The notes beneath the pieces are model-generated. The model saw only the letters and a program-made list of their open reading frames with translations, was not told where the DNA came from and did not search any database. Of a stretch of DNA of 64,000 nucleotides, positions 20,969 through 37,277 are shown piece after piece; position 1 is the first letter of the stretch, and each line of letters begins with the position of its first letter. The translations under genes and the position numbers were made by a program. Source of the DNA: an uncultured Candidatus Saccharibacteria bacterium (GTDB taxonomy: Bacteria; Patescibacteriota; Minisyncoccia; Phycocordibacterales; PALSA-1337); assembly GCA_964561875.1 (NCBI GenBank), contig CAZLQL010000002.1, forward strand, positions 23,613 through 87,612. Reading direction: 5' to 3'.

Positions 20969-22335
20969 GTCAAAAGATCACATTTCATAGTGGAGTGGGT
21001 AGTGTAACTGGTGCAAACTTCTTATTTGAATTAGGTGATCAAAAGATTTTGGTGGATTGTGGTCTTATCCAAGGTGAAAAAGAAGCAATGGGTGACAATA
21101 GACTACCTTTTGGTTATGATCCAAAAGATATAGATATATTATTTGTTACCCATGCGCACCTTGACCATGTCGGTAGGATTCCAAGACTTATAAAAGAAGG
21201 ATTTGAGGGTGTTATATACTCTACTCCACAGACTTTAGAACTAGCTAAACTTATATTGGAAGATGCCGTTATGCTTTTGCAAAAAGCAGCACAAGAGGAT
21301 GGTTTGCCACCTATGTACAATGAAGATGACATGAGACGCTCATTTTCTCTATGGAAAACTATAGATTATCATACAGAAACACAATTTGAAGGTTTCTCAG
21401 TCTATCTAAAAGACGCTGGTCATATACTGGGTTCATCGATGATAGAGTTTACATATAAAAATGATAATGGTGAAAATAGGAAAGTAATGTTTACAGGAGA
21501 TTTGGGTAATTCACCAAGTCCGTTACTTAGAGATACTGAATCTATACAAGGTATAGATTATATAGTTATGGAAAGTGTTTATGGAGATAGAAACCATGAA
21601 CCAAAAAGTGAAAGAATAGAGAAATTGCAAAGAATAATAGAGGATATAATAAGAAAAAAGGGCACACTTGTCATACCCGCTTTTTCACTAGAAAGAACTC
21701 AAGTGCTTATATATGAAATGAATAATTTATTTGAAAATAAAGTTTTACCCCCAATACCGGTTTATATAGATTCACCTCTAGCAACAAAGATTACTGAAGT
21801 ATATAAAGACGGGGAAGATCTTTTCAATGAGAAGACAAAAGAGCAGATAAAGAGTGGTGATGATATTTTTTCTTTTAAAGGATTAACCTATACACATAGT
21901 TCAGAAGATTCTAAAGCACTAGAAAGAGTTCCGGGTCCAAAGATTATAATAGCAGGATCTGGAATGTCGGTTGGAGGTAGGGTAATAAGACATGAAGAAA
22001 TATATTTACCAGATCCAAATAGTACTATTTTACTCGTCGGGTACCAGACATTGGGAACTATAGGAAGACATTTGCTCGATGGAGATAAAAAGATTCAAAT
22101 ACATAGGGAGACTGTAAAGGTAAAAGCAAAAATAGAATCTATACTAGGTTATTCGTCACACAAAGATAGCGATCATTTGGTGGAATTGGTATCTCAAGCG
22201 AGTGATACATTGAAAAAGGTATTCGTTGTAATGGGGGAGTACAAAAGTGCAACTTTCCTAAGTCAGAGAATAAAGGATGAATTAAATATAAATACGGTTT
22301 GCCCAGAGATAGACAAACCGTATTTATTGGACTAG
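20965..22335 (+). CDS. MBL-fold beta-CASP ribonuclease (RNase J-like)
   Basis: HAHLDHVGRIP metallo-beta-lactamase motif plus beta-CASP-like downstream motifs; 456 aa. Confidence 0.8.
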   Translation: MSQKITFHSGVGSVTGANFLFELGDQKILVDCGLIQGEKEAMGDNRLPFGYDPKDIDILFVTHAHLDHVGRIPRLIKEGFEGVIYSTPQTLELAKLILEDAVMLLQKAAQEDGLPPMYNEDDMRRSFSLWKTIDYHTETQFEGFSVYLKDAGHILGSSMIEFTYKNDNGENRKVMFTGDLGNSPSPLLRDTESIQGIDYIVMESVYGDRNHEPKSERIEKLQRIIEDIIRKKGTLVIPAFSLERTQVLIYEMNNLFENKVLPPIPVYIDSPLATKITEVYKDGEDLFNEKTKEQIKSGDDIFSFKGLTYTHSSEDSKALERVPGPKIIIAGSGMSVGGRVIRHEEIYLPDPNSTILLVGYQTLGTIGRHLLDGDKKIQIHRETVKVKAKIESILGYSSHKDSDHLVELVSQASDTLKKVFVVMGEYKSATFLSQRIKDELNINTVCPEIDKPYLLD

Positions 22336-22350
22336 CTATTATAAAGTTAA

Positions 22351-22701
22351 CTAAGCTACCTTTCTTGCTATTACTTCAAAAGCCTTTGGAGCAATATTTG
22401 CTAGATTTGAAAGAGATTTTCTATCTAGTGCAATATTATTTTTCTTTAGACCACCTATAAACTTGCTGTATGAATATTTTGGATCTATAGCTCTAAGTGC
22501 AGCATTTATACGAACATTCCATAGTTTTCTGTAGTCACCCTTTTTGTCTCTTCTGTGAGCAAAAGCGTATGTACCTGCATGTGAAATAGCTTCATAAGCA
22601 GCTCTCTCTGTCTTGCTTCTACGGAAACGGTAACCCTTTACCTGTCTTAGTATATTTCTTCTTGTTTTTAGTGCATTTACACCCTTTTTTACTCTTGCCA
22701 T
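22351..22701 (-). CDS. rplT: 50S ribosomal protein L20
   Basis: MARVKKGVNALKTRR. Confidence 0.95.
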   Translation of the reverse strand: MARVKKGVNALKTRRNILRQVKGYRFRRSKTERAAYEAISHAGTYAFAHRRDKKGDYRKLWNVRINAALRAIDPKYSYSKFIGGLKKNNIALDRKSLSNLANIAPKAFEVIARKVA

Positions 22702-22725
22702 TGTATTTCTTTTATTAAATTAAAT

Positions 22726-22914
22726 TTATGCATTTACTAGAAAACGACTCTTCTCCTTTGCTGTCATATGGAAAGGAACCATAGAGTTCTTTTTCTTTAG
22801 TTGTGAACGTCTGCTCTCTTTTGAATTGAAGTGGTTTTGTCCAGCTCTTCTAGACAGAATCTTTCCATTCTTTGTTATCTTCAGTCTCTTTAAATATGAT
22901 TTATTTGATTTCAT
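22726..22914 (-). CDS. rpmI: 50S ribosomal protein L35
   Basis: 62 aa basic protein; infC-rpmI-rplT order. Confidence 0.85.
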   Translation of the reverse strand: MKSNKSYLKRLKITKNGKILSRRAGQNHFNSKESRRSQLKKKNSMVPFHMTAKEKSRFLVNA

Positions 22915-22937
22915 GATATTTTTATTAAATAGAAAAG

Positions 22938-23498
22938 CTATTTTTTCTCAATTATTGCTGTTAAGCCCTTTAGACTCTTTGTAGGTTCGCTAGATATTTT
23001 GTACTCGACCGTTATGAGCTTCAATATTCGCTCCATACGTTCCTTTAGAAAATTTTGGTCCATGTACTTTGATCTTCCAACGAGAAATAGATCTATCTTC
23101 ACTCTATTGCCTTCTTTTAGCCATTCAGAAGCCTTCTTGGCCTTAAGCTCTAGATCGTGCTCTCCAGTACCTATTTTTACCTGTATATTTTTGAGATCTG
23201 ACGTAACAGAGCGGGATTTTGCTACCTTCTGCTTCTTCTTTTCGTCATATTGAAATTTACCATAATCCATGATTTTTGCAACTGGTGGGGTGGCAGTAGG
23301 GGATATTTCAATAAGATCGAGATTTCTTAGTTTTGCTTCTTCAAGAGCTTTAGAAAGTGTAATAACACCCAGATTTTCTCCATCTGTGGTTATTACCCTT
23401 AGTTCAGGTGCTTTTATTTGAAAATTTATTTTTACTCTAGGGGTCAATTTGAGTCTTATTTGAGCCTTATTTATAGCATATATGATAGATTTAGGCAA
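22938..23498 (-). CDS. infC: translation initiation factor IF-3 (non-ATG start likely)
   Basis: IKAPELRVI...LDLIEISP...KIMDYGKFQY. The ORF-track start codon is TTG, and AUA/AUU candidates follow it, consistent with infC autoregulation. Confidence 0.9.
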   Translation of the reverse strand: MPKSIIYAINKAQIRLKLTPRVKINFQIKAPELRVITTDGENLGVITLSKALEEAKLRNLDLIEISPTATPPVAKIMDYGKFQYDEKKKQKVAKSRSVTSDLKNIQVKIGTGEHDLELKAKKASEWLKEGNRVKIDLFLVGRSKYMDQNFLKERMERILKLITVEYKISSEPTKSLKGLTAIIEKK

Positions 23499-23565
23499 TG
23501 TTTATTATAACCTTATATAACTGTAATTTATTATATATAAGGAAGTATATAAACAAGGTCTTTAT

Positions 23566-24672
23566 CTAAAGAAATTTTCTTATCAGAATAATAAGTATTT
23601 CAACTATCTTTTCAAGAAAGAATCGATTTCTCCATTCCACAAGCTTTATTTCACTTGAATCTTTAATATCATTTACAAAGTGGGAAACTATCTCTTCTGC
23701 AAATTTTCCATTACTTGTAACTATATTTGCTTCAAAGTTATATAGTAAACTAGCATTATCCATATTTAGACTACCTACACTAGACCATTTTCCATCTATC
23801 ACTATAGATTTTGTATGTATCATATTGCCAGAATATAGGAATATTCTAACTCCAGATCTAAGTAGTGTGTCAAAGAATGATCTTGCACCAAGATCTACGG
23901 CAACATGATCTGATTTTTCTGGCATTAGTATCCTAACGTCTACTTTTCTATGTGCTGCCAATTTTATAACTCTTGCTAGTCTAGCTGGTGGTACAAAGTA
24001 TGGTGTTGTTATATATATGTAAGATCTGGCATTTCTTATAGCTTCAAGTAGGGCGGAATACATATATCTTCGACCAGGTGTTGGATTGTTTGTAATATAG
24101 TTGAATTCCGGATCCTTTGGGTCCATGTATGGAGGTAGTGGAGTCTGATGTCTCGATCTCATCCACATTCTATTGAAAGCTTGAGACATTTCTTTTACTA
24201 CTAGACCTTCCAACCTCACGTTTGTGTCTCTCCAGTTTTTTAATTTACTTTCTATACATATACTTCCTGTATAACCAATTTTTTTATCAATAACTATAGT
24301 TCTTCTATGATTTCTAAGAAACCATGATCTATAGTCTGGGATTTTGAAATAATTTGGAATAAGTGTTTTCCAAAACATAAGCTCTATTCCTTTTTCTTTC
24401 AATTCATCTGCAATACTAGATCCAGAAAAAGAGAAACTTCCACCAGCATCCCAAAGAAATCTCACTCTAACTCCTGCTTTTGCTCTTTCGCTACAAATAT
24501 CTATGAGCTTTTGCCCAAATTCATCTTTTATAAATATAAACTGTTCAAGATCTATACTTTTTTCAGATTTTTTACAATCTTGCAGGATAGATTCCCAAGC
24601 CTCACTATTGTTTGCATATAGTGTGTATCTCTTTTCTTCTTCCATGTATATAAGGATACCATATTTATACAC
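23566..24672 (-). CDS. phospholipase D / cardiolipin synthase family protein
   Basis: Two HKD-like motifs, including HTKSIVIDGKWSSVGSLNMDNAS. Confidence 0.8.
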   Translation of the reverse strand: MYKYGILIYMEEEKRYTLYANNSEAWESILQDCKKSEKSIDLEQFIFIKDEFGQKLIDICSERAKAGVRVRFLWDAGGSFSFSGSSIADELKEKGIELMFWKTLIPNYFKIPDYRSWFLRNHRRTIVIDKKIGYTGSICIESKLKNWRDTNVRLEGLVVKEMSQAFNRMWMRSRHQTPLPPYMDPKDPEFNYITNNPTPGRRYMYSALLEAIRNARSYIYITTPYFVPPARLARVIKLAAHRKVDVRILMPEKSDHVAVDLGARSFFDTLLRSGVRIFLYSGNMIHTKSIVIDGKWSSVGSLNMDNASLLYNFEANIVTSNGKFAEEIVSHFVNDIKDSSEIKLVEWRNRFFLEKIVEILIILIRKFL

Positions 24673-24746
24673 ATATAAGGCTTATCATTTGCACTATTTT
24701 TCTATAATGGAGTTATAATATATAGGTATTAGACTAATAAAAAAAT

Positions 24747-25214
24747 ATGACAAAATCACAAAGTTTTTTTCTGCTTTTATTAAGACTTACTACAGGGTTT
24801 ATGATGTTTTACGCAGGTATTACAAAAGTCATCGATCCTACATGGTCATCTGTAGGGTATTTGAAAGGTGCAAAAATGCTCACTGGCTTCTATGCTTTTT
24901 TGCAAGGGTCGAGTATTTTACCTATAGTTGATTTTGTAAATGAGTGGGGACTTACACTTTTGGGAATATCACTAATACTCGGAGTCGGAGTAAGACTCTC
25001 AGCTCCTCTTGGTGCTTTGCTAATGATTCTTTATTACATACCACTCGGTTTCCCTTATCCAAACCCACATGCATTCATAGTTGATGAACATATAATATAT
25101 GCAACCATATTACTATTTTTTGCTTCAATAGATGCAGGACAGTATTTTGGTCTATCAAATAAAATGAGAGAAACATTTCTAGCCAAAATTCCTTTTTTTG
25201 GAAAATATGTATAG
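24747..25214 (+). CDS. DoxX family membrane protein
   Basis: LLLLRLTTGFMMFYAGITK DoxX-like helices. Confidence 0.75.
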   Translation: MTKSQSFFLLLLRLTTGFMMFYAGITKVIDPTWSSVGYLKGAKMLTGFYAFLQGSSILPIVDFVNEWGLTLLGISLILGVGVRLSAPLGALLMILYYIPLGFPYPNPHAFIVDEHIIYATILLFFASIDAGQYFGLSNKMRETFLAKIPFFGKYV

Positions 25215-25266
25215 AAAACAATAACTATATAAGTTTATATTTTGATTGTGTGTTAAAATTTAATAA

Positions 25267-28200
25267 ATGAATAAAAGTAACGATCGAGTTCTGATCCCAG
25301 TATTATTTTTAATTATTGTTTTTGTATTTATTACTATTTTTAAGATAGGTGGTATAAATATTTCTGGGATAAATCATAAGGCGATGGTTCATGAAGGTAT
25401 GAGTATTACGTTTAAAGACTCTTATCAACCTTCGTTTTTATCAAATCTAATTTCAAGAGTTGGATTGTCTAGTGCATATACAGCACTAAGTGGTGCTAGT
25501 AATGGAAAAATATCATATATAGAAGTTGTGCAACATGATGATATGGCCCAACTTAAAAGTTCCGAATACAATAAAATAAGAAAAGATTATGTGCCTGATT
25601 ATGCAAATATCGCTACTGTTGCTGCAAAATCTAGTGGTAATTGGAGCGATGTATTTTCTGGTTATACTTTCGATCAATCAACTATAGTACTTATACCTGA
25701 AGGAATAAGTATAAATTATGATATTGATAACAATGTTTTAATAAAAGGAATAGCAATAAAAGGTAAACTGAGTTTTGATCAAAATAAAAATACAAATCTA
25801 AAAATCGGGACAATCGTACTATATCCATCAGGAACTTATGAAGACAAACCAAGTAGTAGCGTAAGTCATAAGATTACATTTTCAGGTGAAATCGATAAGA
25901 ATATTGATCCTTTTCAAATGACTATTGGTTTGGTATCGATAGGTGGTAGGGTTGATATATATGGCAAAGATATAAAAGAATATTCAAAGATAGTTTCAGC
26001 AAATAGTAATTCTATTACAGTAGAAAATGCTTCAGGTTGGAAATCTGGTGATTCGATAATAGTTTATGAATCAGCAAAATTAAATAAGGCGAGTCTAAAA
26101 CAACAAATATTAAATATATCCTCTGTTCAAGGAAATCAGATAACATTAAATAATTCAATAGTTGGAGGTGTTGGGAAGTTTGCAATCTTGGCAACAAGGA
26201 ATGTTACATTTCAAAGTGATAGTAAGGGTGATAGAGGTCATATGATGTTTCTTGGTGATACATTAGTATCAATAAAAAATATTGCAGTGATAGATCTAGG
26301 TAGAACAACTACTAGCGCCACAGTGAGTGTAAAGAAAGTAGGTGATACATATATTCCTGGAGATAATCAGATAGGAAGATATCCGATACATGCACATCAT
26401 CTTCAAAAGAAGTTTGTTATTGAGGGAAGTATTGTTTATGGTTCACGTGACGAAAATATATTTTACTATAAAAATCTCTCAAGAAGGTTTGTAAATAACA
26501 CACCTCTGTCAGTATATATATCCACAGGAAAAGATCCTTTGGGAGATCAGATGGAGTCGGTGGTGTGGCCAACATCACATGATATAGTCGCTTCATCAAA
26601 CGGACGTTGGTGGTTTCTATACAATCCTGTTGGTGAAATGCCTGCACCCACTGCAGAGGCGACAGGATTTGCTCCATACAAAACACGCATAGGTAGCAAT
26701 AACGATGTTGAAATACTTGATTCAAATAATAATTGGGTAAAAACTGGTTGGATAAAGTATAAAGCAGTCATAAAAAATGGAAAGATATATGGCGATGGGA
26801 CTGTGGATTCTAGAATATCAGTAATAGACACACCTATTGCTTCACCAAAATGGGGTATAGTAAGTCATAATAGTTACGGTGATATAAAAAACAATGTAGT
26901 TGTAGGAGCAGAAGGCTCGGGTATAACAACAGAAGAGGGACTAGAGTCAGGCATAATAGATTCAAATCTAGTTGTGGGGTTGGGAGGTGGTACGGGTGAA
27001 CATGATGATAAAAGATGGTGGGGATTCGGTTTGAAAAAGCTTGATCTAGGATACGGTGGTGTAGCATTTTGGCATGCATCTATGGTCCCAGAGATTACAA
27101 ACAATATCGCAGATGGATTGTTTAGATTTGGTGTATATGTTGTTTATCATCCTTATGATGTTAATGGAGCTGTACCATCGATTAATAATTCAAATCAATA
27201 TAGCTTCCCAAATATTCCAGGAATGCCTTATCAATTAACAAATTATAAAGGCTTTACAAATGGAATAATGAAGTTTGAAAACAATACCTCATATGCAGAA
27301 TCTGGTCATGATGCTTCATCACTCATGCTTATAAATATAGGATCGTCAGATATTGAAACTACAAATCCATATAATGTCGTATCAAATTTTACTGCATATC
27401 ATAAAGGTATGACGGTAATTAGTATGGCCCCAATTACATTTACTGGATTGAGGTTATATGGAGATGGGGTGGGTACAGGAATAAATGCTGGTGATACTGA
27501 ATATTCTTTGATAAACAGTGAGGTTAAGTATTTTTCAAAAGGGATAAATTATGACAGGCATTCTCTAAGTATTATTGATTCGGTAGTTGATCATGTTCAG
27601 ACAAATTCACAAGCACAAGGTAAAATATATTATGATTCATTGTCTAAGAAAAGAGATAGAATATCAAAAAATAAGGATACTTATACAAAAGAAGCAATCA
27701 AGGAAAATAAAGATGCGAACTTTATCGCTGTGCTTGATCATGACAATGTATTTAATGCCATAAATAAAGATGAATCATTAAAAGGTTGGGCTACTATAGA
27801 TATAGATAAAGAAAAGCAGACTGTTACTATGAAGTGGAATCTTCATGATGGAAATAGTCCGATAATAAATATAGATGTAGTTGTTCCATCGAATGATATA
27901 GGTATACCTGCTATTATTCCTAATAAATTAAAAAGGGTATTTATGGTTTCTCAAGATAATACAAAATATAGTGGATCTTATGTTGTTACAAAAGCTGATA
28001 TAGAATCTGGAAGGTATTTCCCAGGAAAATATAATGGAGCAAAACCTCTGACATTTGAAGAATTTATAAGTTATTTAAACAAAGGAATGGTTGAGATTAG
28101 ATTTATAACCAATCATATAAACTTTGTTGATTCTGGTGCTTGGATAGAGGCACAAGGAAGTTTTGTTAAATATAAAGGTGTATCAAATTCTGATGATGTT

Positions 28201-28875
28201 AAACCTATTGAAAATAAACCAATTGAAACAACAGTTGATAAGAACAATCAGGTAAATATACCAGTTGGTCAAGTGCCAAAGGCTGTAGAATCTATGCCAG
28301 CGCCTGACACTGGATTACAAAACCTAAATCCAGTACAAACAACTATACCTATTATAAATACCAATACAAACACTAATACCAATACTAATTCTAATCCTAA
28401 TCCTAATACACAAAACACACCTGCAAACACAGACAATTCAAGTTCTAAATATGTAAAAGCATTAAATGGTTTTATTCCAAAAGGTGGAGATTCTAGTGCG
28501 GATGCTTCAAGGGTATCTGTGGATGAAGACAAGGCTTCCGCAAATTCATATTCTTCTGGATCATATAACGGCAATTCAAATGACTGGGTTTGGGATCTTA
28601 ATATCAATACTCCATCAGACAGAAAAATATATAATATAAGAATAACAGATGGAGAAAGTACATGGTCTACAAATGAGGATATTTATTGGCCACTGGTTGC
28701 ATTTAAAGATGGGAAACAAATGCATACAACAAGATCTGATCCTTTTATGATAACTGTGCCAGGGTTAAATAAAATCAGACTCTATGGACAGCAAAAAACT
28801 GCGTCATATAAAACAGTAAAAATATTTATAAACTTTGATCAGACAGACTATATAGAGGTAAGTAATGTGAGGTAG
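25267..28875 (+). CDS. giant secreted/surface protein (1202 aa), probable beta-helix with a low-complexity TNTNTNSNPNPN linker
   Basis: N-terminal TM/signal segment. A GRYPIHAHH segment may be beta-helix/G8-like, with low confidence. A hexanucleotide-repeat-encoded linker lies at 28355-28410. The stop codon falls inside a 22-bp direct repeat. Confidence 0.6.
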   Translation: MNKSNDRVLIPVLFLIIVFVFITIFKIGGINISGINHKAMVHEGMSITFKDSYQPSFLSNLISRVGLSSAYTALSGASNGKISYIEVVQHDDMAQLKSSEYNKIRKDYVPDYANIATVAAKSSGNWSDVFSGYTFDQSTIVLIPEGISINYDIDNNVLIKGIAIKGKLSFDQNKNTNLKIGTIVLYPSGTYEDKPSSSVSHKITFSGEIDKNIDPFQMTIGLVSIGGRVDIYGKDIKEYSKIVSANSNSITVENASGWKSGDSIIVYESAKLNKASLKQQILNISSVQGNQITLNNSIVGGVGKFAILATRNVTFQSDSKGDRGHMMFLGDTLVSIKNIAVIDLGRTTTSATVSVKKVGDTYIPGDNQIGRYPIHAHHLQKKFVIEGSIVYGSRDENIFYYKNLSRRFVNNTPLSVYISTGKDPLGDQMESVVWPTSHDIVASSNGRWWFLYNPVGEMPAPTAEATGFAPYKTRIGSNNDVEILDSNNNWVKTGWIKYKAVIKNGKIYGDGTVDSRISVIDTPIASPKWGIVSHNSYGDIKNNVVVGAEGSGITTEEGLESGIIDSNLVVGLGGGTGEHDDKRWWGFGLKKLDLGYGGVAFWHASMVPEITNNIADGLFRFGVYVVYHPYDVNGAVPSINNSNQYSFPNIPGMPYQLTNYKGFTNGIMKFENNTSYAESGHDASSLMLINIGSSDIETTNPYNVVSNFTAYHKGMTVISMAPITFTGLRLYGDGVGTGINAGDTEYSLINSEVKYFSKGINYDRHSLSIIDSVVDHVQTNSQAQGKIYYDSLSKKRDRISKNKDTYTKEAIKENKDANFIAVLDHDNVFNAINKDESLKGWATIDIDKEKQTVTMKWNLHDGNSPIINIDVVVPSNDIGIPAIIPNKLKRVFMVSQDNTKYSGSYVVTKADIESGRYFPGKYNGAKPLTFEEFISYLNKGMVEIRFITNHINFVDSGAWIEAQGSFVKYKGVSNSDDVKPIENKPIETTVDKNNQVNIPVGQVPKAVESMPAPDTGLQNLNPVQTTIPIINTNTNTNTNTNSNPNPNTQNTPANTDNSSSKYVKALNGFIPKGGDSSADASRVSVDEDKASANSYSSGSYNGNSNDWVWDLNINTPSDRKIYNIRITDGESTWSTNEDIYWPLVAFKDGKQMHTTRSDPFMITVPGLNKIRLYGQQKTASYKTVKIFINFDQTDYIEVSNVR
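28846..28867. repeat. 22-bp direct repeat, left copy (atagaggtaagtaatgtgaggt)
   Basis: Exact 22/22 match to 31222-31243. It overlaps the stop codon of the giant ORF. Confidence 0.85.
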
Positions 28876-28920
28876 AAGGTGTGGTTAAATAAGAAATAAA
28901 GTGTATTGAATTTTGAGTAT

Positions 28921-28958
28921 AAAAAATAACCCCACAGAACGTTTGTGTTCCGTGGGGC
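28921..28958 (-). terminator. rho-independent terminator for the minus-strand GC-rich operon
   Basis: Hairpin ccccacagaac/gttccgtgggg with a T tract on the minus strand. Confidence 0.6.
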
Positions 28959-28980
28959 CGAGCTAGCAAATTAATTTTTA

Positions 28981-29445
28981 CTATCCTAATATGTGACGTT
29001 CGATATCGAGCCAGCTTTCGACTCGAGTGGTGCTTGAGAGCTCCGCTTGCCATTTTTCAGCATCTTCCTGATTCGCTTGGAAAAGTAATCGATGGGTAAT
29101 AAAAGGCATATGACTCATGACTTCCGGTCGGTCGTCAATGAAATGAGTGATTCCAAGACGATGACAGATCGGAGCTTTGTCACGACGCTCTGCGCAGAAA
29201 TGGAGGTGGTCTGTGGCGATTCCGACAGACTGGAGAAATCGAGTCGAGCGTAGCCAAGCCTCAGCTCTGACTTGTTGTTCAGGAGTTACTCGTGAGATGA
29301 TATGCACCCTCTCACCGAATTTCTCTGATACAAGCCTTCGAATGACTCGATCTGCATCTGGGAGTAGAACTTGCATACCGTTTACACGGTGCACAATGGT
29401 TCTTCCCAGATCGATACCAAGAGCATTTTCAGTTTTTATTTCCAT
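28981..29445 (-). CDS. HAD-superfamily-like small protein (degenerate motif I), GC-rich
   Basis: GIDLGRTIV ... HFIDDRPE resembles HAD motifs I and IV, but the second Asp is replaced. Overlaps the upstream gene by 17 bp. Confidence 0.4.
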   Translation of the reverse strand: MEIKTENALGIDLGRTIVHRVNGMQVLLPDADRVIRRLVSEKFGERVHIISRVTPEQQVRAEAWLRSTRFLQSVGIATDHLHFCAERRDKAPICHRLGITHFIDDRPEVMSHMPFITHRLLFQANQEDAEKWQAELSSTTRVESWLDIERHILG

Positions 29446-30313
29446 ACTTTTTTATCCAAGTTCTGATTTCTGGCAGGTGATGCAGGTGGGTGACAAGTGT
29501 GCAGTAAGGATCGTGAGTTATTTTTCGAATGAGTACAGGGTCAAATTCCTCGATCGTTTCTCCTACGTGCAGGAAGCACAATCCAAGTTGTTTCGATAGA
29601 CCGAGCGGGGCTATCAGGTCCCAAGGTGTCTCGAAGTGTGGTCTAACAATCACTGCTCCAACTTCACCCTTCCAGACCTTGGCAAATACCGCTCCGATAC
29701 TTCCAGCAGCTACCTCAGCGTTCTTGAAGAGACCGCTATCAGTTAGGTCTACCATTCTCTGGACAATCTCTGGGTATGCAGTAGGTAGATCCTTGAGAAC
29801 AACATATTGTTTCTTGAGTGGTCGCTTTATATCCGGCTTGAGTAAAAGTCTCTTACCGAAACGAAGTCGAGTCCCCACATCTCTAGTTCCTTTAGCGAAA
29901 CCATAGATTTCTTCGGTATTGATATCTCCAATGTAAGTTGCAATCACTTTGCCATCACAGACGAGGCCCAACATAGTGGTAACTCCTTGCGAGGTATTGA
30001 GTGCGTAGGATTTGGTTCCATCGACCGGGTCGACAGTAAACCAGATATCGTGTTTGCTGTCAGTGCAAGGAATATCCAATTCCTTTTCCTCAGCAATGAT
30101 ACCGAAAGTAGGGAAGCGTTTTCGAAGTTCCCGGATATACATCTGTTGAGCTTTGAGATCACCACTGGTGACCACATCCTCTTTGATGCCATCGTAGGCC
30201 CTCTTGTCGTGGATAACTGTTTTGTGCGATTCGGTACGGATGATAGCGATCGCTTTTCTGACGATGGCGATCATATCATTCCGAATTCGTCTCATATTTG
30301 GTATATTTTTCAT
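29429..30313 (-). CDS. inositol monophosphatase / CysQ family phosphatase, GC-rich
   Basis: WFTVDPVDGTKSY (DPxDGT) plus EE and WD motifs; 294 aa. Confidence 0.75.
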   Translation of the reverse strand: MKNIPNMRRIRNDMIAIVRKAIAIIRTESHKTVIHDKRAYDGIKEDVVTSGDLKAQQMYIRELRKRFPTFGIIAEEKELDIPCTDSKHDIWFTVDPVDGTKSYALNTSQGVTTMLGLVCDGKVIATYIGDINTEEIYGFAKGTRDVGTRLRFGKRLLLKPDIKRPLKKQYVVLKDLPTAYPEIVQRMVDLTDSGLFKNAEVAAGSIGAVFAKVWKGEVGAVIVRPHFETPWDLIAPLGLSKQLGLCFLHVGETIEEFDPVLIRKITHDPYCTLVTHLHHLPEIRTWIKKYGNKN

Positions 30314-30470
30314 TCAATGTCCTTTCTGTTTCTACTATATGTTACTATCTTTAAAATTGCTGTGTTTGTATAAAATCTTGTATAGGTTTACACTTATTTG
30401 TATAAGTTTATTGAAAAATATAGGTAAATATGGTAGATTAGTTGTATAAAATAATTACAACTTATTATAT

Positions 30471-31190
30471 ATGTCAAAACACATATTAGAAAAAATTGGT
30501 TTTCTGGGTCATGAAAAAGAAATCTATCTTGCTCTTTTAGGTGTTGGTTCGTCTTCAGTTTCTGAATTAGTTCGTAAAACAGGTATTCATCGTCCTACGG
30601 TTTACAAAACACTAGCACTTCTTATTGATAAGGGTCTTGTACGCATCATGCCAGTTGGGAAATATAAAAAATATGTTGCTGAGTCGCCAGAACATTTAGA
30701 AACAATTTTTAAAGAACTTGAAGCCGATTTTACTTCAGAGATATTTGATCTAAAGGATATGTATGAAAGTAGAGATAAAAAGCCACGAATTACTTTTGTA
30801 GAAGGGTCAAAGGGTATTACTCAAGTCTTTTCTGATGTGGTTCATCGTCTCAAAAAAGGTGAAATGTACTTACGATATTCTTCACAAAAGGAATTGGATG
30901 TAAAAACATTTGTACCAAAGGACTATCGAGAGGTGAGAGATCGAAAAGGACTTGAACGCCTTATCATTACCAATGAACCGACCAAGAAACGTCATAGTAA
31001 AAAATTAGGTAGGGAAATCAAAGTTATTCCTCCTGATTTTGATTTGTTTGAATACAATATTTCACAGATTATTTATGCTGATAGAGTAGCTTTTATTGAT
31101 TACAATACAAAAACGTCAATCACCATAGAAAATCCTATTTTTGCTGAATTTCAAAGAAAGATTTTTAAGTTGTTATTCAAGAAGCTTTAA
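30471..31190 (+). CDS. TrmB-like HTH transcriptional regulator
   Basis: N-terminal EKEIYLALLGVGSSSVSELVRKTGIHRPTVYKTLALLIDKGLV is winged-helix TrmB-like. Confidence 0.6.
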   Translation: MSKHILEKIGFLGHEKEIYLALLGVGSSSVSELVRKTGIHRPTVYKTLALLIDKGLVRIMPVGKYKKYVAESPEHLETIFKELEADFTSEIFDLKDMYESRDKKPRITFVEGSKGITQVFSDVVHRLKKGEMYLRYSSQKELDVKTFVPKDYREVRDRKGLERLIITNEPTKKRHSKKLGREIKVIPPDFDLFEYNISQIIYADRVAFIDYNTKTSITIENPIFAEFQRKIFKLLFKKL

Positions 31191-31195
31191 AATGA

Positions 31196-31221
31196 GTCAA
31201 AACAAAACAAATCTTGCGAGT
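31196..31221. repeat. hairpin repeat family, copy 1 (gtcaaaacaaaac...tcttgcgagt...tgtttg)
   Basis: Shares an exact 14-nt block and an exact 10-nt block with 32648-32690. Forms a stem-loop with a TTGCGAG loop. Confidence 0.55.
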
Positions 31222-31243
31222 TGTTTGTTCATAGAGGTAAGTA
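31222..31243. repeat. 22-bp direct repeat, right copy
   Basis: Exact copy of 28846-28867. In the giant gene's frame it would read ...IEVSNVRWL*. Confidence 0.85.
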
Positions 31244-31326
31244 ATGTGAGGTGGTTATAAAGTAATAACATTACAAATTATTTATCGATAAATTGATAAT
31301 AATTTATTATGTGATAAACTTTTTTT

Positions 31327-32019
31327 ATGTTTGATAATCCTACTTCTATTAGATATTTAGACGATAATACTATAAACCAGAGTACTAATAATGACTCGAT
31401 AAGAGCAAAATCCGCAGTTTTTGCAAGAAAAAGAAAAGTTGTATCGTATTATTTCGGTACACCTTTGCAGTCTGCTACTCACATAGCAGATGCTAATTTG
31501 GATCAATTTATAACAATACAAGGTGATAAAATTAATTATTTACAACCACCACGTCCAATAGTAAAAGGAGGTCTGAATGTTTCTTTTGGCCTAGGAGGGA
31601 ATTCACCACGTCATGCATGGAAGATTCCTTCAGTAATTTACGTTACCAAGAAATACATACTTATAACCCCATCAGAAGAACAGCTAAATGCTTCAAAGTT
31701 TATATACGGTATTAGTATTGCTATGACTTTCTTATTCCTACTATTAACAATACCTTTCACGTTTATTTTCGGTCCTATTTTCCTCATATTTTCTCTTTTA
31801 TGTATATCGTTACCTATCATCAAATCCTACCTCTTCTTTTTTAAGAAAAGTTACATATCTGTAGCCCCTATTGAAGTAATAAAAAATATAAATGTAGATG
31901 AAAAGACGATTACTGTTGATGGATTTTTTAATACTGGAATTCCATCATTCTTAAAATACAAAGTATCTGCTGAATTATACGTAGGAGACAATATTTCTTT
32001 TTTTAGAGACAATATTTAA
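31327..32019 (+). CDS. hypothetical membrane protein
   Basis: Two TM helices; AT-rich and native-like. Confidence 0.4.
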   Translation: MFDNPTSIRYLDDNTINQSTNNDSIRAKSAVFARKRKVVSYYFGTPLQSATHIADANLDQFITIQGDKINYLQPPRPIVKGGLNVSFGLGGNSPRHAWKIPSVIYVTKKYILITPSEEQLNASKFIYGISIAMTFLFLLLTIPFTFIFGPIFLIFSLLCISLPIIKSYLFFFKKSYISVAPIEVIKNINVDEKTITVDGFFNTGIPSFLKYKVSAELYVGDNISFFRDNI

Positions 32020-32202
32020 ATTAATAGCTTCCGGTACAGTAGCTATTGACATATAGATTTTACTATGATATATCCATAAAGTAAGGTAAGTTCTTTGAAA
32101 GGTGTGTAGTTGAGTACGGAATAAGGGAAATAATTGACTTGCTGGCAATCGCTATGCGGATTAAATTCCTTTACTGTACTCAATACAAGAGAGAAACACA
32201 TC

Positions 32203-32436
32203 ATGAAAAAATTCGAAAAAAAATTGAAGGACGCCCTTAAGAAAATTGAGGGCAAGTCAGTCAGTCTTAGTGGCTCGAGCAACTGCATTCGCATTGTGCT
32301 CAAAGGTGGCAAAGAATACTGGGGAACGGTGAAAGAAGTCTGCAGTGACTCGTTCACGGTCTCGGTCTCGTATACGGGTGGCGGTCGTGAAAACATCGTC
32401 GTGCGTATGAGGGAAGTTGCTTCTTTCAGCGAGTGA
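32203..32436 (+). CDS. small GC-rich hypothetical protein (77 aa)
   Basis: MKKFEKKLKD... reads as a coherent ORF. GC is much higher than the flanks. It is followed by a hairpin terminator. The antisense ORF 32043-32462 is judged spurious. Confidence 0.4.
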   Translation: MKKFEKKLKDALKKIEGKSVSLSGSSNCIRIVLKGGKEYWGTVKEVCSDSFTVSVSYTGGGRENIVVRMREVASFSE

Positions 32437-32460
32437 ACCCTAAAATCCAAAATCCTTAAC

Positions 32461-32495
32461 ACACCGCATGGTTAGCCCAGCGGTGTTTACTTTTG
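32461..32495 (+). terminator. hairpin terminator, second copy of the hairpin family seen at 13866-13892
   Basis: acaccgcatggttagcccagcggtgt followed by ttacttttgc. Confidence 0.5.
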
Positions 32496-32647
32496 CTTAA
32501 ATATTCAAGTCTTTTGATATAATTTACTTTTATAGAATAGTTTTAAATAATGGCGAGAAAAACGTTGTAGTGGAAGACACTCTGGTGAATATCAAGGGTG
32601 CTTATACAGACATTTTACGACTTTCAACTCCCCAAATAGCTTCATCA

Positions 32648-32690
32648 GTCAAAACAAAACCACTCTTGCGAGTGGTCTGTTTTGTCTGTG
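32648..32690. repeat. hairpin repeat family, copy 2
   Basis: gtcaaaacaaaaccactcttgcgagtggtctgttttg forms a ~15-bp stem; related to 31196-31221. Confidence 0.55.
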
Positions 32691-32941
32691 GACACATACC
32701 GAAATACATCGAACCGCCTAAAAGACTATCTTTCTCGGTTCTGGCACTACTATCAAACTAGCCCTGATTTGCAAAAAGTCCTTGCAACAGCATGATAATC
32801 CAGTCCTGAAGTGGTCACAATAAGGGTATTGAATTCTTGTATTGCATTTCTGTACTGGCGCGTAATTTTTTTAAAAACAGATTATCCTGTAATTACATAC
32901 AAAAACGGTGAGTGATATTTTTATTGTTCACTTTATATTAG

Positions 32942-32970
32942 TTGACATAAAACTTTGCTGGATTTAGACT
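32942..32970 (+). promoter_or_regulatory. sigma70-like promoter TTGACA-N17-TAGACT upstream of the GHKL ATPase gene
   Basis: ttgacataaaactttgctggatttagact. A 10-bp palindrome tcgatatcga (33007-33016) and a hairpin (33054-33075) lie in the 5' leader. Confidence 0.4.
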
Positions 32971-33086
32971 ATTAGAGTCCTTGGTGAAGTATTGGTATCG
33001 CTAGTCGATATCGATCACAGACACTAATACAAATCTCTAATTGTATTTTATCTGCAAAACACCTCGCCAAGGGTGTTTATTAGTTT

Positions 33087-34631
33087 TTGGTATCTAGTTG
33101 GATATCGAAAATAGCAAAAATTATTATGTTTATAAAAAATCACCCTAACGCAGCAAAACTCCTCTCCTCGTTGCGTAATACGGGATATGACAGCTATGCT
33201 GCTGTTGAGGACATTATTGATAATTCTATCGACGCTGATGCTCGAAGAATTAAGATCGGTATTAGTATTGTCGGAAAAGAGCCCCGCGTTACAATTGCTG
33301 ACGATGGATCAGGAATGACGAAAGAAATTCTTGATGAGGCTTTGAAGTTGGGATCAGAAACAGAAAAAGATGAGATGTCTGATCTTGGTAAATATGGCAT
33401 GGGTCTTTGTACTGCCTCAATCTCGATGGCGAAAAGACTTAAGGTTATTACTCGAAAAGTAGATGGTGGATATTGGTCAAGTGTCCAAGATCTCGATGAA
33501 GTCGTGAAAGCAAACGATTTTATTAAGGAGTTGCAAGAATCAGACAATGATGACATTGCTCTCTTTAAAGAATTGGTAGAGAGCGATCATGGAACCCTTG
33601 TTATCTTGAGCAAAATTGATCGCCTGTCAAACACAAATGTTTCTATTTTTGCGACTACTCTTTCAAAAGAAATCGGTCGTATATACAGAAAATTCATTGC
33701 AGCCGGTATTGAGTTCAGAGTAAATGATAAGAAGGTTGAAGGCATTGATCCCCTAATGCTTGATGTTGAAGGTACACAGGTTTATTCTGACGAAGAATAT
33801 GAGGTGCCATCACACAAAGGAAAAGAAAAGGTTAATGTGCGAGTTGTGTTTCTGCCAAGTGTAAATGAACAGCTTGAAAAGGAGTATAAAATGAATATCT
33901 CATCTCAAGGGTTCTATATACTAAGAAATAATCGTGAGATCGCTAATGGAGTTACACTTGATGTTTTTAAGAAGCACAACGATCTTAATAGATTACGTAT
34001 CGAGCTTTCTTTCACTTCAAATCTCGATAATGAGATGGGTGTTCGTTTCACAAAAGATGGCGTATCTCCTAATCAGGCCATAAGCGATTTCCTTAAACAA
34101 GAAATCGGTGGCCAGATTGAATCAATTAGAAAAACCGTTGTAAAAAGTCGTGTGACCGACAAATCAAAAGAAATAAACCACGAGGAGTCTGCTGCAGTTA
34201 TTGCGAAGAAATCTAAATTACTCATTACTCCAGACGCAATAATTGAACGTCGATCACCAAAAATAAATAAAAATAACAAGAAAGAAAAAACGGAAAAAGA
34301 CGAAACTCGTGATCGAGTACCAAAGGAGACAAGGATTTCTTCAAGTGGCTTAGGGGCAAGGTTCGAAACCCTTTCTATGGGAAGAGAAGGTGCTCTATAT
34401 GATTGTTATCAGGAAGGTAAGGTTGTTGTGATTCAATGGAATGTAGATCACCCATTTTACGAGAAAATCGTACTCGCGAATAAAGATCGAAAAGATTTGA
34501 CGGCGGGCATAGATTTCTTGATATATGCACTTGCTTCAGCGGAGTTGAAAACAACAAATGATGATAATGTAAAAATTATTAGCCAGATAAAAACAATAAT
34601 GTCCGGAAATCTAAAATCATTACTATCTTAA
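33087..34631 (+). CDS. GHKL-superfamily (HATPase_c_3-like) ATPase, 514 aa
   Basis: N-box EDIIDNSIDA, G1 DDGSGM and G2 GKYGMGL motifs. The C-terminal 300 aa are of unknown function. Confidence 0.75.
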   Translation: MVSSWISKIAKIIMFIKNHPNAAKLLSSLRNTGYDSYAAVEDIIDNSIDADARRIKIGISIVGKEPRVTIADDGSGMTKEILDEALKLGSETEKDEMSDLGKYGMGLCTASISMAKRLKVITRKVDGGYWSSVQDLDEVVKANDFIKELQESDNDDIALFKELVESDHGTLVILSKIDRLSNTNVSIFATTLSKEIGRIYRKFIAAGIEFRVNDKKVEGIDPLMLDVEGTQVYSDEEYEVPSHKGKEKVNVRVVFLPSVNEQLEKEYKMNISSQGFYILRNNREIANGVTLDVFKKHNDLNRLRIELSFTSNLDNEMGVRFTKDGVSPNQAISDFLKQEIGGQIESIRKTVVKSRVTDKSKEINHEESAAVIAKKSKLLITPDAIIERRSPKINKNNKKEKTEKDETRDRVPKETRISSSGLGARFETLSMGREGALYDCYQEGKVVVIQWNVDHPFYEKIVLANKDRKDLTAGIDFLIYALASAELKTTNDDNVKIISQIKTIMSGNLKSLLS

Positions 34632-34689
34632 TAGTCGGTGTGAATTAGAGATTAAAAGACCGCTAGTTATCTAGTGGTTTTTTTAATAC

Positions 34690-35211
34690 ATGATTGAGTT
34701 TGTTGAAACGTCTCATGTTGTGTATAATATACATAACATGGCTACACAATCTAAAAATTTGTATAAGGCCGAAGACGTAGCAAAATATTTTATCTATCTA
34801 GGATCACAACAGGTTGTCGGCGACAACAAAGAAAGAGAGGGAGTAACAAATCTTAAACTCCAGAAGATACTTTATCTTGCTCAAGCGTATTTTCTTGCAA
34901 AAATTGGCAAGCCTCTTTTTGTTGATCCTATCGAAGCATGGGAGTTCGGTCCAGTTGTCCCAAATGTTTACCACAAGTTGAAGAGATATGGTAGTAACCC
35001 TATTATCGTCGAAAAAGATGAAAGCTCTGTGTTACCAGAAGATAAAGAAATTTTAGGTAAAGTTTGGGAAGCTTTTGGTGGCTATTCAGCTAGTCGTCTG
35101 GTTGATATTACTCACGCGCATACGCCTTGGAAAGAGGCTTATAATTCTTCGAATAAAGAAATTAGTAACAAAGCTATCGGTGAATATTATACGCCTTTGC
35201 TAAATAAATAA
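34690..35211 (+). CDS. Panacea (DUF4065, SocA-like) antitoxin-domain protein
   Basis: KLQKILYLAQAYFLAKIGKPLF...AWEFGPVVPNVY is the hallmark of this domain. Confidence 0.7.
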   Translation: MIEFVETSHVVYNIHNMATQSKNLYKAEDVAKYFIYLGSQQVVGDNKEREGVTNLKLQKILYLAQAYFLAKIGKPLFVDPIEAWEFGPVVPNVYHKLKRYGSNPIIVEKDESSVLPEDKEILGKVWEAFGGYSASRLVDITHAHTPWKEAYNSSNKEISNKAIGEYYTPLLNK

Positions 35212-35235
35212 TCCCTTGTATCGGTAAATACGGCC

Positions 35236-35637
35236 ATGGAAGAGATGATTACGCCTAGCAAGATAGATCTTAGATACGCTGAACACAAAGTCTTGTTTTT
35301 AATCTGCGACTGTTCTCTGGATAAACATTATTCATTTTGGAAACTCACGAGAGAACAAGCTGAAAAGTTTATTAAAAAACTTAGATACGTTGAGCAATTA
35401 ACGTGGTCTCAATTTTCAAATTTACCAAGAGATAGTACTGGTCCAACAGTAGAAAAGCAGAATACCGATAGTTTTAATATGATACATAATCAAAATACAT
35501 CAGCGGAAAAAATTGCTGAACAGTATTATTTTCATTTTCGAATTGAACCGAGAGGACTTTTTAGGGTTTTTGGATATCAGAAGAAACAATACTTTTGCAT
35601 AACCCATATTGATTACGAAGGAAGAATTCATCATTAA
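35236..35637 (+). CDS. small protein, candidate RelE/ParE-like toxin
   Basis: The C-terminus FRVFGYQKKQYFCITHIDYEGRIHH resembles the RelE/ParE C-terminal beta strands. It sits directly downstream of the Panacea-domain gene. Confidence 0.3.
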   Translation: MEEMITPSKIDLRYAEHKVLFLICDCSLDKHYSFWKLTREQAEKFIKKLRYVEQLTWSQFSNLPRDSTGPTVEKQNTDSFNMIHNQNTSAEKIAEQYYFHFRIEPRGLFRVFGYQKKQYFCITHIDYEGRIHH

Positions 35638-35711
35638 AAAATACACTGCGAATTCATATTTACAGAGAGATTAGAATATGTAGATAAAGAAGGTTGTCGA
35701 AGTAATAAAAA

Positions 35712-35738
35712 ACACCAGCAAAAGCTGGTATTTTTTTA
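35712..35738 (+). terminator. rho-independent terminator (accagcaaaagctggt plus T7)
   Basis: Perfect 6-bp stem, 4-nt loop and a T tract after the three-gene module. Confidence 0.7.
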
Positions 35739-35871
35739 TTACTGTGGAGATAGTCACGCAAAGTTGGAACCAACTCTATTCTTGGTTTTTTGAATCGTCT
35801 GGGCGATTATAGAAAGTAGGGAACATTGCGTATAAAAGAGAACTCCACAATAAGCAGAGCCTCTTGCGGAG

Positions 35872-36336
35872 TTATTGACCAAGATTTTTGATTCGTTCCA
35901 AGGTTTCGCGTCGTTCAATAGCTTGTCTCGTGATTTTCTGAACTACGTAAACGCATTTCCTCAGGTCAGCTTCACCCTCAGGGGTCGAACAAAGCCTCCG
36001 ATGAAGAACGTCTTTGGGAATTAGAAACGTTATATATTCCGCTAGGTCAGAAAGTGTTGCGTCTGATAAATTACGCAGCTCTTCCACCGTAAACCCTACA
36101 TCGCAGAATTCTTGCGAATCTTTTGCGACTTGAACCAGAAGCTCTTGATAGAGCTCCATTAGGTTTTCCTTCTGCCATGTTTCTAACTGATCCCAATCAT
36201 CAATATTGTCTCGATAGAGAGCAGTGACATCAGGAAGGAGGGTTGGAATGGACGCGATCTTTTTGAGCCCTATAAGCCAAGCCCTAACTTCTTCTTTGGT
36301 TTGCATGTTTAAAACCTTTGGTTGGATTTTTACCAA
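35872..36336 (-). CDS. GC-rich hypothetical protein adjacent to the ssrA 3' end
   Basis: 154-aa ORF with much higher GC than the genome background. Confidence 0.4.
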   Translation of the reverse strand: MVKIQPKVLNMQTKEEVRAWLIGLKKIASIPTLLPDVTALYRDNIDDWDQLETWQKENLMELYQELLVQVAKDSQEFCDVGFTVEELRNLSDATLSDLAEYITFLIPKDVLHRRLCSTPEGEADLRKCVYVVQKITRQAIERRETLERIKNLGQ

Positions 36337-36389
36337 AAAAAGCTGCTATTAAATATGATATCATATCTAGTAATAAATGTCAAATCTGT

Positions 36390-36787
36390 GGAGATGCTGG
36401 GAGTTGAACCCAGGTGCAGATGAAATCTTATACTGATTCTACATTGTATAGAATGCTTTTGCGTCTATCTATCGACAGACTATTTAACCTTTATACTTTA
36501 AAGCAAACAAAATATATAAAAGCGATTCCCAAGAGATTTGAACTATAAACAGGGAAGAGAATATAGTTCTAGTTTAATTTATATCAATCCACCACTTCTC
36601 TAAACAAAGGAGTGACGACCGTCGCTCGAGCCTAAGCTAAAGCGAAAGCAAGATTTGTACTTCCAAAAGGAGATACAACTGCCTTTGCAACTGATTTTGC
36701 AGTTACGATTTCCGTCAGATTAAAGAGTTAACGGTGCTCTACAATGCACAATATGAAGTACCTCAACTGTCGAGGCCTTTCATCCCC
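36390..36787 (-). ncRNA. ssrA: tmRNA (transfer-messenger RNA)
   Basis: On the minus strand the 5' end reads GGGGATGAAAGGCCTCGAC and the 3' end reads CTGGGTTCAACTCCCAGCATCTCCA. The acceptor stem GGGGATG/CATCTCC pairs. The internal tag ORF ends ...GSTNLAFALA*. It lies next to smpB on the same strand. Confidence 0.7.
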
Positions 36788-36830
36788 ATATTAAAATTTT
36801 CAAACAACTAAAATGAAAAATAAAGTCTAA

Positions 36831-37277
36831 TTATAAAGAAAGTTCTCTTCGCATATCGCGATCTGAGTCTCTCTTTTTAATATCTTCTCTTTTATCAAAT
36901 TTCTTTTTTCCTTTGACAATAGCGATTTCTACCTTTATTTTTCCTGATTTATTATATATCAAAATAGGCACTATTGTCAATCCCTTCTTTTGTTCTACTC
37001 CTGCGAGTTGTGAAATCTGAGCCTTATTTAACAAGAGTTTTCTATGTCTTTTTGGATCATATTCGCCTGAGGTATTCTTTTCTTGAAAAGGAGGGATTTC
37101 ACTATTCATAAGAAAGGCTTCACCACCTCTAATAGTCACATATGAACCTAGTATTGAACCTTGTCTCTTTCGCAAGCTCTTTACTTCTGTACCTAGGAGT
37201 TCTATTCCAGCTTCAAAACCCTCGACTATGTCGTAGTTCATTTTTGCCTTTTTGTTTTCTATAAGCGTTTCATTCAT
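36831..37277 (-). CDS. smpB: SsrA-binding protein
   Basis: GTEVKSLR...GGEAFL...KRHRKLLLNK...KGKKKFDKRED. Confidence 0.9.
   Translation of the reverse strand: MNETLIENKKAKMNYDIVEGFEAGIELLGTEVKSLRKRQGSILGSYVTIRGGEAFLMNSEIPPFQEKNTSGEYDPKRHRKLLLNKAQISQLAGVEQKKGLTIVPILIYNKSGKIKVEIAIVKGKKKFDKREDIKKRDSDRDMRRELSL

Follow-up and report, generated by a model that had tools for sequence, protein, structure and literature searches.

Three genes that follow one another closely on the same strand, as those at positions 33087-35637 of the 64,000-nucleotide (nt) stretch of an uncultured Candidatus Saccharibacteria genome analysed here (the window, to which all positions refer), raise the question of whether they form one system or are only neighbours. 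The initial annotation proposed the former, an undescribed defence or toxin-antitoxin module composed of a GHKL ATPase (gene 1), a Panacea (DUF4065) protein (gene 2) and a small RelE/ParE-like protein (gene 3). The co-oriented open reading frames (ORFs) that it described are indeed present, at 33087-34631, 34690-35211 and 35236-35637. Our results, taken as a whole, make it highly probable that the region holds two independent, merely adjacent units, in a variable stretch that borders the transfer-messenger RNA (tmRNA) gene at its 3' end. One of them (unit A, ~34703-35743) would consist of its own promoter, panA (gene 2), panT (gene 3) and a strong terminator, and represents a PanA-PanT pair; the other (unit B, 32942-34688) would be a solitary GHKL gene that moves between genomes as a cassette of promoter, structured leader and ORF and that has no functional tie to unit A.

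Probable separation of gene 1 from the Panacea pair

The neighbourhoods of gene 1 homologues carry much of this argument. The 6-kb flanks of 80 gene 1-relative loci from species-representative genomes, with 26-88% identity to gene 1, were searched with profiles of genes 2 and 3, and none of the 77 loci with at least 1 kb of downstream sequence had a Panacea gene or a gene 3 relative nearby. A Pfam scan found no Panacea domain among 60 immediate co-directional neighbours of gene 1 relatives, and relatives of genes 2 and 3 were likewise missing around nine further gene 1 relatives (51-75% identity), each of them solitary and each in a different setting: after ribonucleotide reductase, between L10/L12 and a kinase, beside gyrA, beside Vsr/Dcm, beside SLFN_AlbA_2 or near serine recombinases. 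The initial annotation had itself named a lack of co-occurrence of gene 1 homologues with genes 2 and 3 as evidence that would tell against its module; since this is what we observed, membership of gene 1 is not supported and the three-gene reading is largely refuted.

Genes 2 and 3, on the other hand, are constant companions. Among 80 metagenomic loci with gene 3 relatives, 78 have an intact gene 3 ORF and 74 of these carry a Panacea gene directly upstream, typically at a gap of 13-21 nt, the remaining four being contig-truncated or partial. Three of three distant members of the gene 3 family (~22-28% identity) are likewise preceded by a PF13274 gene, which they overlap or follow at 3-11 nt. 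The pair has no other conserved neighbour, the most frequent one occurring in 7/80 loci at variable distance, and of the 33 pairs preceded by at least 1.7 kb of sequence, only one (locus L145) has a GHKL gene nearby.

Signals in the window draw the same boundary. The single promoter and single terminator assumed for all three genes were not found, since the gene 1 stop is followed by a hairpin and U-run (dG -16.5 kcal/mol, z score -3.5, none of 200 shuffles folding as well) and gene 2 has a TATAAT promoter of its own. The promoter of the gene 1 unit has a -35 box that is invariant in nine relatives. Upstream of gene 2 relatives, a TATAAT-like box (at least 5 of 6 matches, 4-14 nt before the ATG) is present in 53 of 62 distinct regions vs ~16% of shuffles, typically 6-10 nt ahead of the ATG; 37 of the 62 regions show a TGn extension and only one a Shine-Dalgarno-like motif. 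A box placed just before the ATG, with hardly any Shine-Dalgarno motif, indicates that the gene 2-3 mRNA would be leaderless or nearly so and would start from the pair's own promoter. The terminator region at the other end of the pair folds strongly (dG -26.4 kcal/mol, z score -5.3).

Revision of two start codons alters the spacing as well. Gene 1 had been described as a 514-aa protein and an ORF of that length exists, but its start is most likely the internal ATG at 33126, giving 501 aa, because the identical database protein P0121 begins there; the 13 additional codons of the longer ORF overlap a conserved RNA hairpin. Gene 2 most likely starts at the ATG at 34738, which gives 158 aa, and its relatives are nearly all 155-160 aa long with an N-terminus (MATQSK...) that matches this start. 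The spacer between genes 1 and 2 would therefore be 106 nt, beyond the 25-60 bp previously stated, while panT begins 24 nt after panA.

Two loci with the window's own flanks (L20/IF-3 and SmpB-FtsH) show each unit alone at the syntenic site. Upstream of the SmpB-FtsH block, L001 carries gene 1 (88% identity) and lacks the pair, while in L153 the pair is present (87% identity for gene 2, 74% for gene 3) and gene 1 is missing. Nucleotide homology to L001 extends from 32941, at the -35 box, through the gene 1 stop at 34631 exactly, and homology to L153 runs from 34720, just before the gene 2 -10 box, to 35613. The non-native composition attributed to the three genes is limited to a mild deviation of gene 1 (GC content 0.376, tetranucleotide 1%), whereas genes 2-3 are ordinary (GC 0.354 vs a window mean of 0.343, with 82% of random segments at least as deviant in tetranucleotide distance). 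Foreign composition was thus rejected for genes 2-3 and kept, as a mild one, for gene 1 alone.

The alternative of one three-gene defence or toxin-antitoxin operon, with the ATPase as sensor or accessory, draws on the common orientation and closeness of the genes, on the accessory third genes that some PanAT loci allow (PMC8832971) and on a second, independent juxtaposition in L145, where the gene of a 501-aa GHKL protein with 27% identity to gene 1 over 480 residues precedes a gene 2-3 pair by 181 bp. The L145 protein belongs to an outlier branch (~24-30% identity over longer alignments), and between its gene and gene 2 a hairpin followed by a T-run and a separate -10-like box can be seen, both noted by eye only and neither folded nor scored; we treat this case as co-location and not as evidence for three genes. 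The operon is further opposed by the missing co-occurrence in the 77 + 60 + 9 tests on the gene 1 side and the single case in 33 on the other, by the terminator and separate conserved promoter between genes 1 and 2, by the occurrence of each unit alone at the syntenic site, and by the lack of any HATPase accessory protein in the portion of the Panacea dataset considered here (PMC8832971, Dataset S1). We give the operon next to no credence and retain a facultative link between GHKL gene and pair at a small probability. The two-unit explanation carries a caution of its own, namely that close spacing and common orientation of three genes in a small genome need not mean an operon.

The Panacea antitoxin and its putative toxin partner

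Assignment of gene 2 to the Panacea (DUF4065) family was borne out by its SocA_Panacea domain (PF13274, E 5.5e-25, 88.9 bits vs a Pfam gathering cutoff of 25.7), and it also matches phrog_1281 (E 3.5e-47). With a PF13274 antitoxin, a small adjacent partner and no conserved third gene, genes 2-3 very probably make up a type II toxin-antitoxin module of the PanA-PanT class. Of the proposed module, the Panacea antitoxin and the RelE-like toxin are supported, and gene 1 falls out of it.

Gene 3 is less easily placed by sequence. Only 80 family members, all of them stand-alone proteins of 125-155 aa, emerged when 1.84 billion representatives were searched with a profile. Neither gene 3 nor any of 74 family members has a Pfam match, and the check for RelE/ParE profiles was accordingly negative for all of them. 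The NCBIfam MAG6450 family (NF046006) is a marginal pass for gene 3 (41.2 bits vs a cutoff of 40) and is matched by 60 of the 74 members at E<=0.01; the model takes its name from a Mycoplasma agalactiae gene, and 'MAG6450' is described in the literature merely as a 'conserved hypothetical protein'. In PADLOC, gene 3 matches NsnC over the C-terminal 100 residues of the latter (positions 176-277 of 284, E 9e-6), a match at domain level only. This part of NsnC is a Barnase/EndoU/Colicin/RelE (BECR) RNase domain, PB-BECR1, with YafQ as its closest structure and an H-R-H triad (PMC12065111), and it provides the only sequence-profile link of gene 3 to a named RNase-type domain.

The RelE/ParE-like character that had been assigned to gene 3 proved right at the level of fold, as judged from a predicted structure. 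A model built from a 74-sequence alignment that includes the family members found here (pLDDT 93, pTM 0.87) ranks RelE/ParE-type families at the top in Foldseek, with target-normalised TM scores of 0.5-0.62 and E-values that are not significant (best 0.18), and a RelE/ParE-superfamily fold is predicted on this basis. The residues H100, R102, R110, F112 and D126 are conserved throughout the family, the close clade additionally keeps H124 and the C-terminal H133, and the conserved His, Arg and Asp positions map to strands beta2-beta4 of the predicted structure and to its C-terminus.

Although the module was proposed as undescribed, Panacea antitoxins with partners of this type had been reported. 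The text of Kurata et al. 2022 (PMC8832971) gives MqsR-like, PemK and ParE partners, and in the entries of its Dataset S1 considered here HHpred relates the PanA partners of clusters T14, T28 and others, in which the antitoxin gene comes first, to HigB, YoeB, RelE and YafQ. The largest cluster in these entries, T1, contains 'hypothetical' proteins accompanied by a domain-free PanA in M. agalactiae and other Mollicutes, and one of its members is recorded as toxic. As far as these entries go, gene 3 is probably a member of cluster T1 or a close neighbour of it.

Most likely, gene 3 encodes an mRNA endonuclease of the RelE/YafQ type. PanT would arrest translation by this activity, and PanA would neutralise it through direct binding, since direct neutralisation of the cognate toxin was shown experimentally for other stand-alone Panacea domains (NetFlax 2023, PMC10440598). 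A toxin with the predicted RelE/ParE-superfamily fold could instead act as ParE does and poison DNA gyrase rather than cleave mRNA, which we consider improbable. Still less probable is a SocA-like, type VI mechanism in which gene 2 serves as a proteolytic adaptor that delivers the toxin to ClpXP and not as a binding inhibitor: NCBIfam SocA_antitoxin is the best named match of gene 2, but its 83.6 bits are far under the family cutoff of 190, the partner is RelE-like in fold and unrelated to SocB, and the Panacea antitoxins tested so far form complexes with their toxins, stand-alone domains neutralising them directly (PMC10440598). A third possibility concerns biological role and not biochemistry, and therefore overlaps with the preferred explanation: the pair could be an abortive-infection phage defence in which Panacea senses infection and releases the RelE-like toxin. 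A sensory role of Panacea and many links between toxin-antitoxin systems and defence have been put forward by the NetFlax authors (PMC10440598), the pair is patchily distributed, with large serine recombinases near six loci and in L161, and in the window it lies in a variable region beside another putative defence-type gene. PADLOC, however, gives no system match for gene 2 and only the domain-level match for gene 3, and the gene 3 family is absent from the viral contigs of IMG/VR, a result that also led us to reject a phage origin; a defence role is conceivable, and on balance we doubt it.

Several points weigh against our explanation of the locus as a PanA-PanT pair next to an unrelated cassette. 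Gene 3 has no match to RelE, ParE, HigB, YoeB or YafQ sequence profiles, and searches of PDB sequences found no link to a solved structure. Its conserved His, Arg and Asp residues are candidate catalytic positions, and its role as a toxin is putative. The close gene 3 loci, drawn from a narrow clade, do not count as phylogenetically independent cases. A GHKL gene, finally, adjoins two of 34 pairs (the window and L145), which is above the expectation for uniform gene placement, although a preference of both units for variable or defence islands would account for it.

The GHKL gene, its leader and the surrounding sequence

The Bergerat fold attributed to gene 1 is well founded, as HATPase_c_3 matches residues 36-170 (Pfam, E 1.5e-27) and the N-box, DDGSGM and GKYGMG motifs are unchanged in all 25 homologues. 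Weaker matches are HATPase_c and, over residues 27-360, MzaB (NCBIfam, PADLOC). Against solved structures, a profile of the 25 homologues matched MORC2/3/4 and MutL/MLH1/PMS over the ATP-binding core only, and for this reason gene 1 is classed from sequence as a MORC/MutL-class GHKL ATPase whose conserved C-terminal half has no assignment. In the window it is surrounded by genes for a TrmB regulator and a membrane protein and by the toxin-antitoxin pair, and only four viral contigs (IMG/VR) contain relatives of it.

No conserved partner of gene 1 could be retained. The sole recurrent one, in 7 of 60 neighbours and absent from the window, is a protein with Sigma70_r4 and RNA-polymerase alpha C-terminal domain (alpha-CTD)-like regions. 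This protein (~400-700 aa) lies directly downstream of the GHKL gene in L008, L012, L013, L044, L048, L049 and L050, and a weakly similar helix-turn-helix (HTH) protein is encoded upstream of the L145 GHKL gene (L145 2581-3786). The GHKL gene and this protein may be a two-gene system in some lineages. Among more distant relatives, the loci L063-L080 share large conserved neighbours (886-, 340- and 603-aa products) and are read here as Mza-like, and C5-methyltransferase and Vsr genes adjoin others.

What accompanies gene 1 consistently is non-coding. An element of ~190 nt that contains promoter and leader (32942-33125 in the window) precedes gene 1 in all relatives with at least 59% identity, whatever the flanks, including the GHKL genes of L001-L006 and L170-L183. 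Its ~140-nt leader (Table 1) contains two near-repeat hairpins, P1 and P4, of the pattern UUGGUAUC-N4-7-GAUAUCGA. In a 15-sequence alignment (A8), 95.4% of cells are paired, nine pairs are changed on both sides (3.2 +/- 1.2 in shuffles, with none of 500 reaching nine) and the covariation score is 0.148 vs 0.02-0.06 in slid controls; P1 and P4 each have four covarying pairs and two invariant G-U pairs. The window leader has a minimum free energy of -42.3 kcal/mol (z score -5.1), and in its fold the invariant 5' UCCUUGGUG pairs with the loop and 3' arm of the terminator-like hairpin P3, which makes it a candidate anti-terminator; this helix is 88.9% paired over the alignment, with only one compensatory pair. 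P1 and P4 could also be palindromic operators in the DNA, which we judged less likely than RNA hairpins because the distance between the arms is not fixed (4-7 nt), each hairpin keeps two invariant G-U positions and the compensatory changes are in keeping with RNA.

A covariance model of the leader matched solely upstream of gene 1 relatives in 1.09 Mb searched, with three weak matches at the correct position in relatives of 36-46% identity from other phyla, and no Rfam family matched it, either at the gathering threshold or at E<=10. Gene 1 is probably expressed under transcription attenuation, and the conserved leader supports the view of gene 1 as an autonomous, attenuator-controlled cassette. 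Going further, GHKL gene and leader could together make up a so far undescribed single-gene module that is regulated by RNA, spreads horizontally and may serve defence, with the leader as a new cis-regulatory RNA outside Rfam (an attenuator, a riboswitch or a protein-binding leader); we offer this tentatively, at somewhat less than an even chance. As a weaker addition to it, the repeated adjacency of GHKL and Panacea genes in the window and L145 might reflect functional cooperation and not co-location in a variable island. The leader is the most novel item in the region and a candidate new riboregulator in a poorly studied bacterial group.

Table 1. Coordinates of the genes, leader elements and transcription signals at the locus
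Feature	Position in window	Strand	Description
Gene 1 unit promoter	32942..32970	+	TTGACA, 17 nt spacer, TAGACT (consensus scan)
Conserved structured 5' leader of gene 1	32975..33112	+	~140 nt, four hairpins
Leader candidate anti-terminator	32978-32986 pairs with 33065-33073	+	
Leader hairpin P1	~32989-33018	+	
Leader hairpin P2	~33026-33047	+	
Leader hairpin P3	33057-33078 + U-run	+	terminator-like
Leader hairpin P4	~33084-33111	+	near repeat of P1
Gene 1	33126..34631	+	501-aa MORC/MutL-class GHKL ATPase (most likely start), MzaB-like middle region, conserved C-terminal domain of unknown function
Terminator closing gene 1 unit	34655..34688	+	hairpin + U-run; 12-bp stem, U7
Promoter of gene 2-3 pair	34703..34730	+	-35-like TTGAAA 34703-34708, TATAAT 34723-34728, 9 nt before ATG
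Gene 2 (panA)	34738..35211	+	158-aa stand-alone Panacea-domain antitoxin (most likely start)
Gene 3 (panT)	35236..35637	+	133-aa MAG6450-family protein, predicted RelE/ParE-superfamily fold, putative toxin
Terminator closing gene 2-3 unit	35701..35743	+	strong, intrinsic; core hairpin 35714-35729 + T-run

The surroundings of the two units show several features of a variable region. The tmRNA gene, with the tag AKSVAKAVVSPFGSTNLAFALA, adjoins smpB (36386-36787 and 36831-37277, both on the - strand), and the stretch 3' of it differs between the window, L001 and L153, as in a variable hotspot. An integrated ssrA island was considered, since the 3' end of the tmRNA faces the module, but 22000-36800 revealed no duplicated att-like repeat and an integrase was likewise missing, so that the classic ssrA island was rejected and the region is kept as a variable region only. 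The toxin gene and the tmRNA gene are separated by a 154-aa ORF (35872-36336, - strand) with an unusually high GC content (0.428, 99th percentile of all values in the window); Pfam, NCBIfam and PADLOC gave no match to it, and none of the fetched loci has a counterpart. Further upstream, a perfect 22-nt direct repeat, ATAGAGGTAAGTAATGTGAGGT, at 28852-28873 and 31231-31252 brackets ~2.4 kb with a 154-aa ORF, a 294-aa ORF and a TrmB-type regulator. This segment has a GC content of 0.396, with 500-nt stretches of 0.46-0.47, vs 0.343 for the window, and may be a recent insertion with duplication. Two copies of a 38-nt terminator-like hairpin (31192-31229 and 32644-32681, 87% identical, 1.45 kb apart) flank the genes at 31327-32436. 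Large serine recombinase genes are found at variable distances near Panacea-toxin pairs and some GHKL cassettes (L094, L098, L101, L108, L109, L135, L161, L170 and L181), which hints that both ride on mobile elements.

Comparison with known systems

The locus adds one more PanA-PanT pair to those described, extends the known pairing of Panacea with a RelE-type fold to Patescibacteria, and assigns a predicted fold to the MAG6450 family, which likely acts as a toxin under Panacea control. As in other PanA-PanT systems, the antitoxin is a stand-alone PF13274 domain, the partner is small, co-directional and separated by less than 100 nt, and the pairing is conserved over many taxa with no longer operon conserved around it; the antitoxin-first order is that of clusters T1, T14 and T28 in the entries of Dataset S1 considered here (PMC8832971). 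The present Patescibacteria branch is missing from those entries, which list no pair under the names Patescibacteria or Parcubacteria, and their sole Saccharibacteria pairs are those of cluster T14, which have an HTH-bearing PanA. Genes 2-3 differ further in a toxin family that has no Pfam model and in a leaderless promoter organisation that is undescribed for such systems. The type VI SocAB system is more distant, given a SocA match below the family cutoff and a partner of RelE-like fold.

Unlike RelE, YafQ, HigB and YoeB, gene 3 lacks a sequence-profile match to the RelE/ParE superfamily, and its 133 aa exceed the 85-100 aa usual for these toxins, the additional length being due to an extended N-terminus and to insertions in the helical part. 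RelE/ParE toxins pair with RelB, DinJ, HigA or YefM, whereas gene 3 is paired with Panacea. With NsnC of the Menshen system it has in common the BECR/RelE-like class and a His/Arg/His type signature, but it lacks the N-terminal inactive-PIN domain, and it would be a free-standing toxin under control of an antitoxin where NsnC is an effector controlled by an ATPase; neither NsnA (ParB-DUF262) nor NsnB (ABC ATPase) genes lie beside it. Gene 1, for its part, shares the HATPase_c_3 Bergerat fold with MzaB of the Mza anti-phage system and is homologous to it in the middle region, where residues 27-360 align to MzaB positions 3-353. Its score of 123 bits is far under the curated cutoff of 850 and thus below an equivalog-level match, its last 140 residues differ, and the partner genes MzaA, C, D and E are absent from the window around it. 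The close relatives of gene 1 set it apart from Mza in two more respects, in that they are solitary and carry the conserved structured leader.

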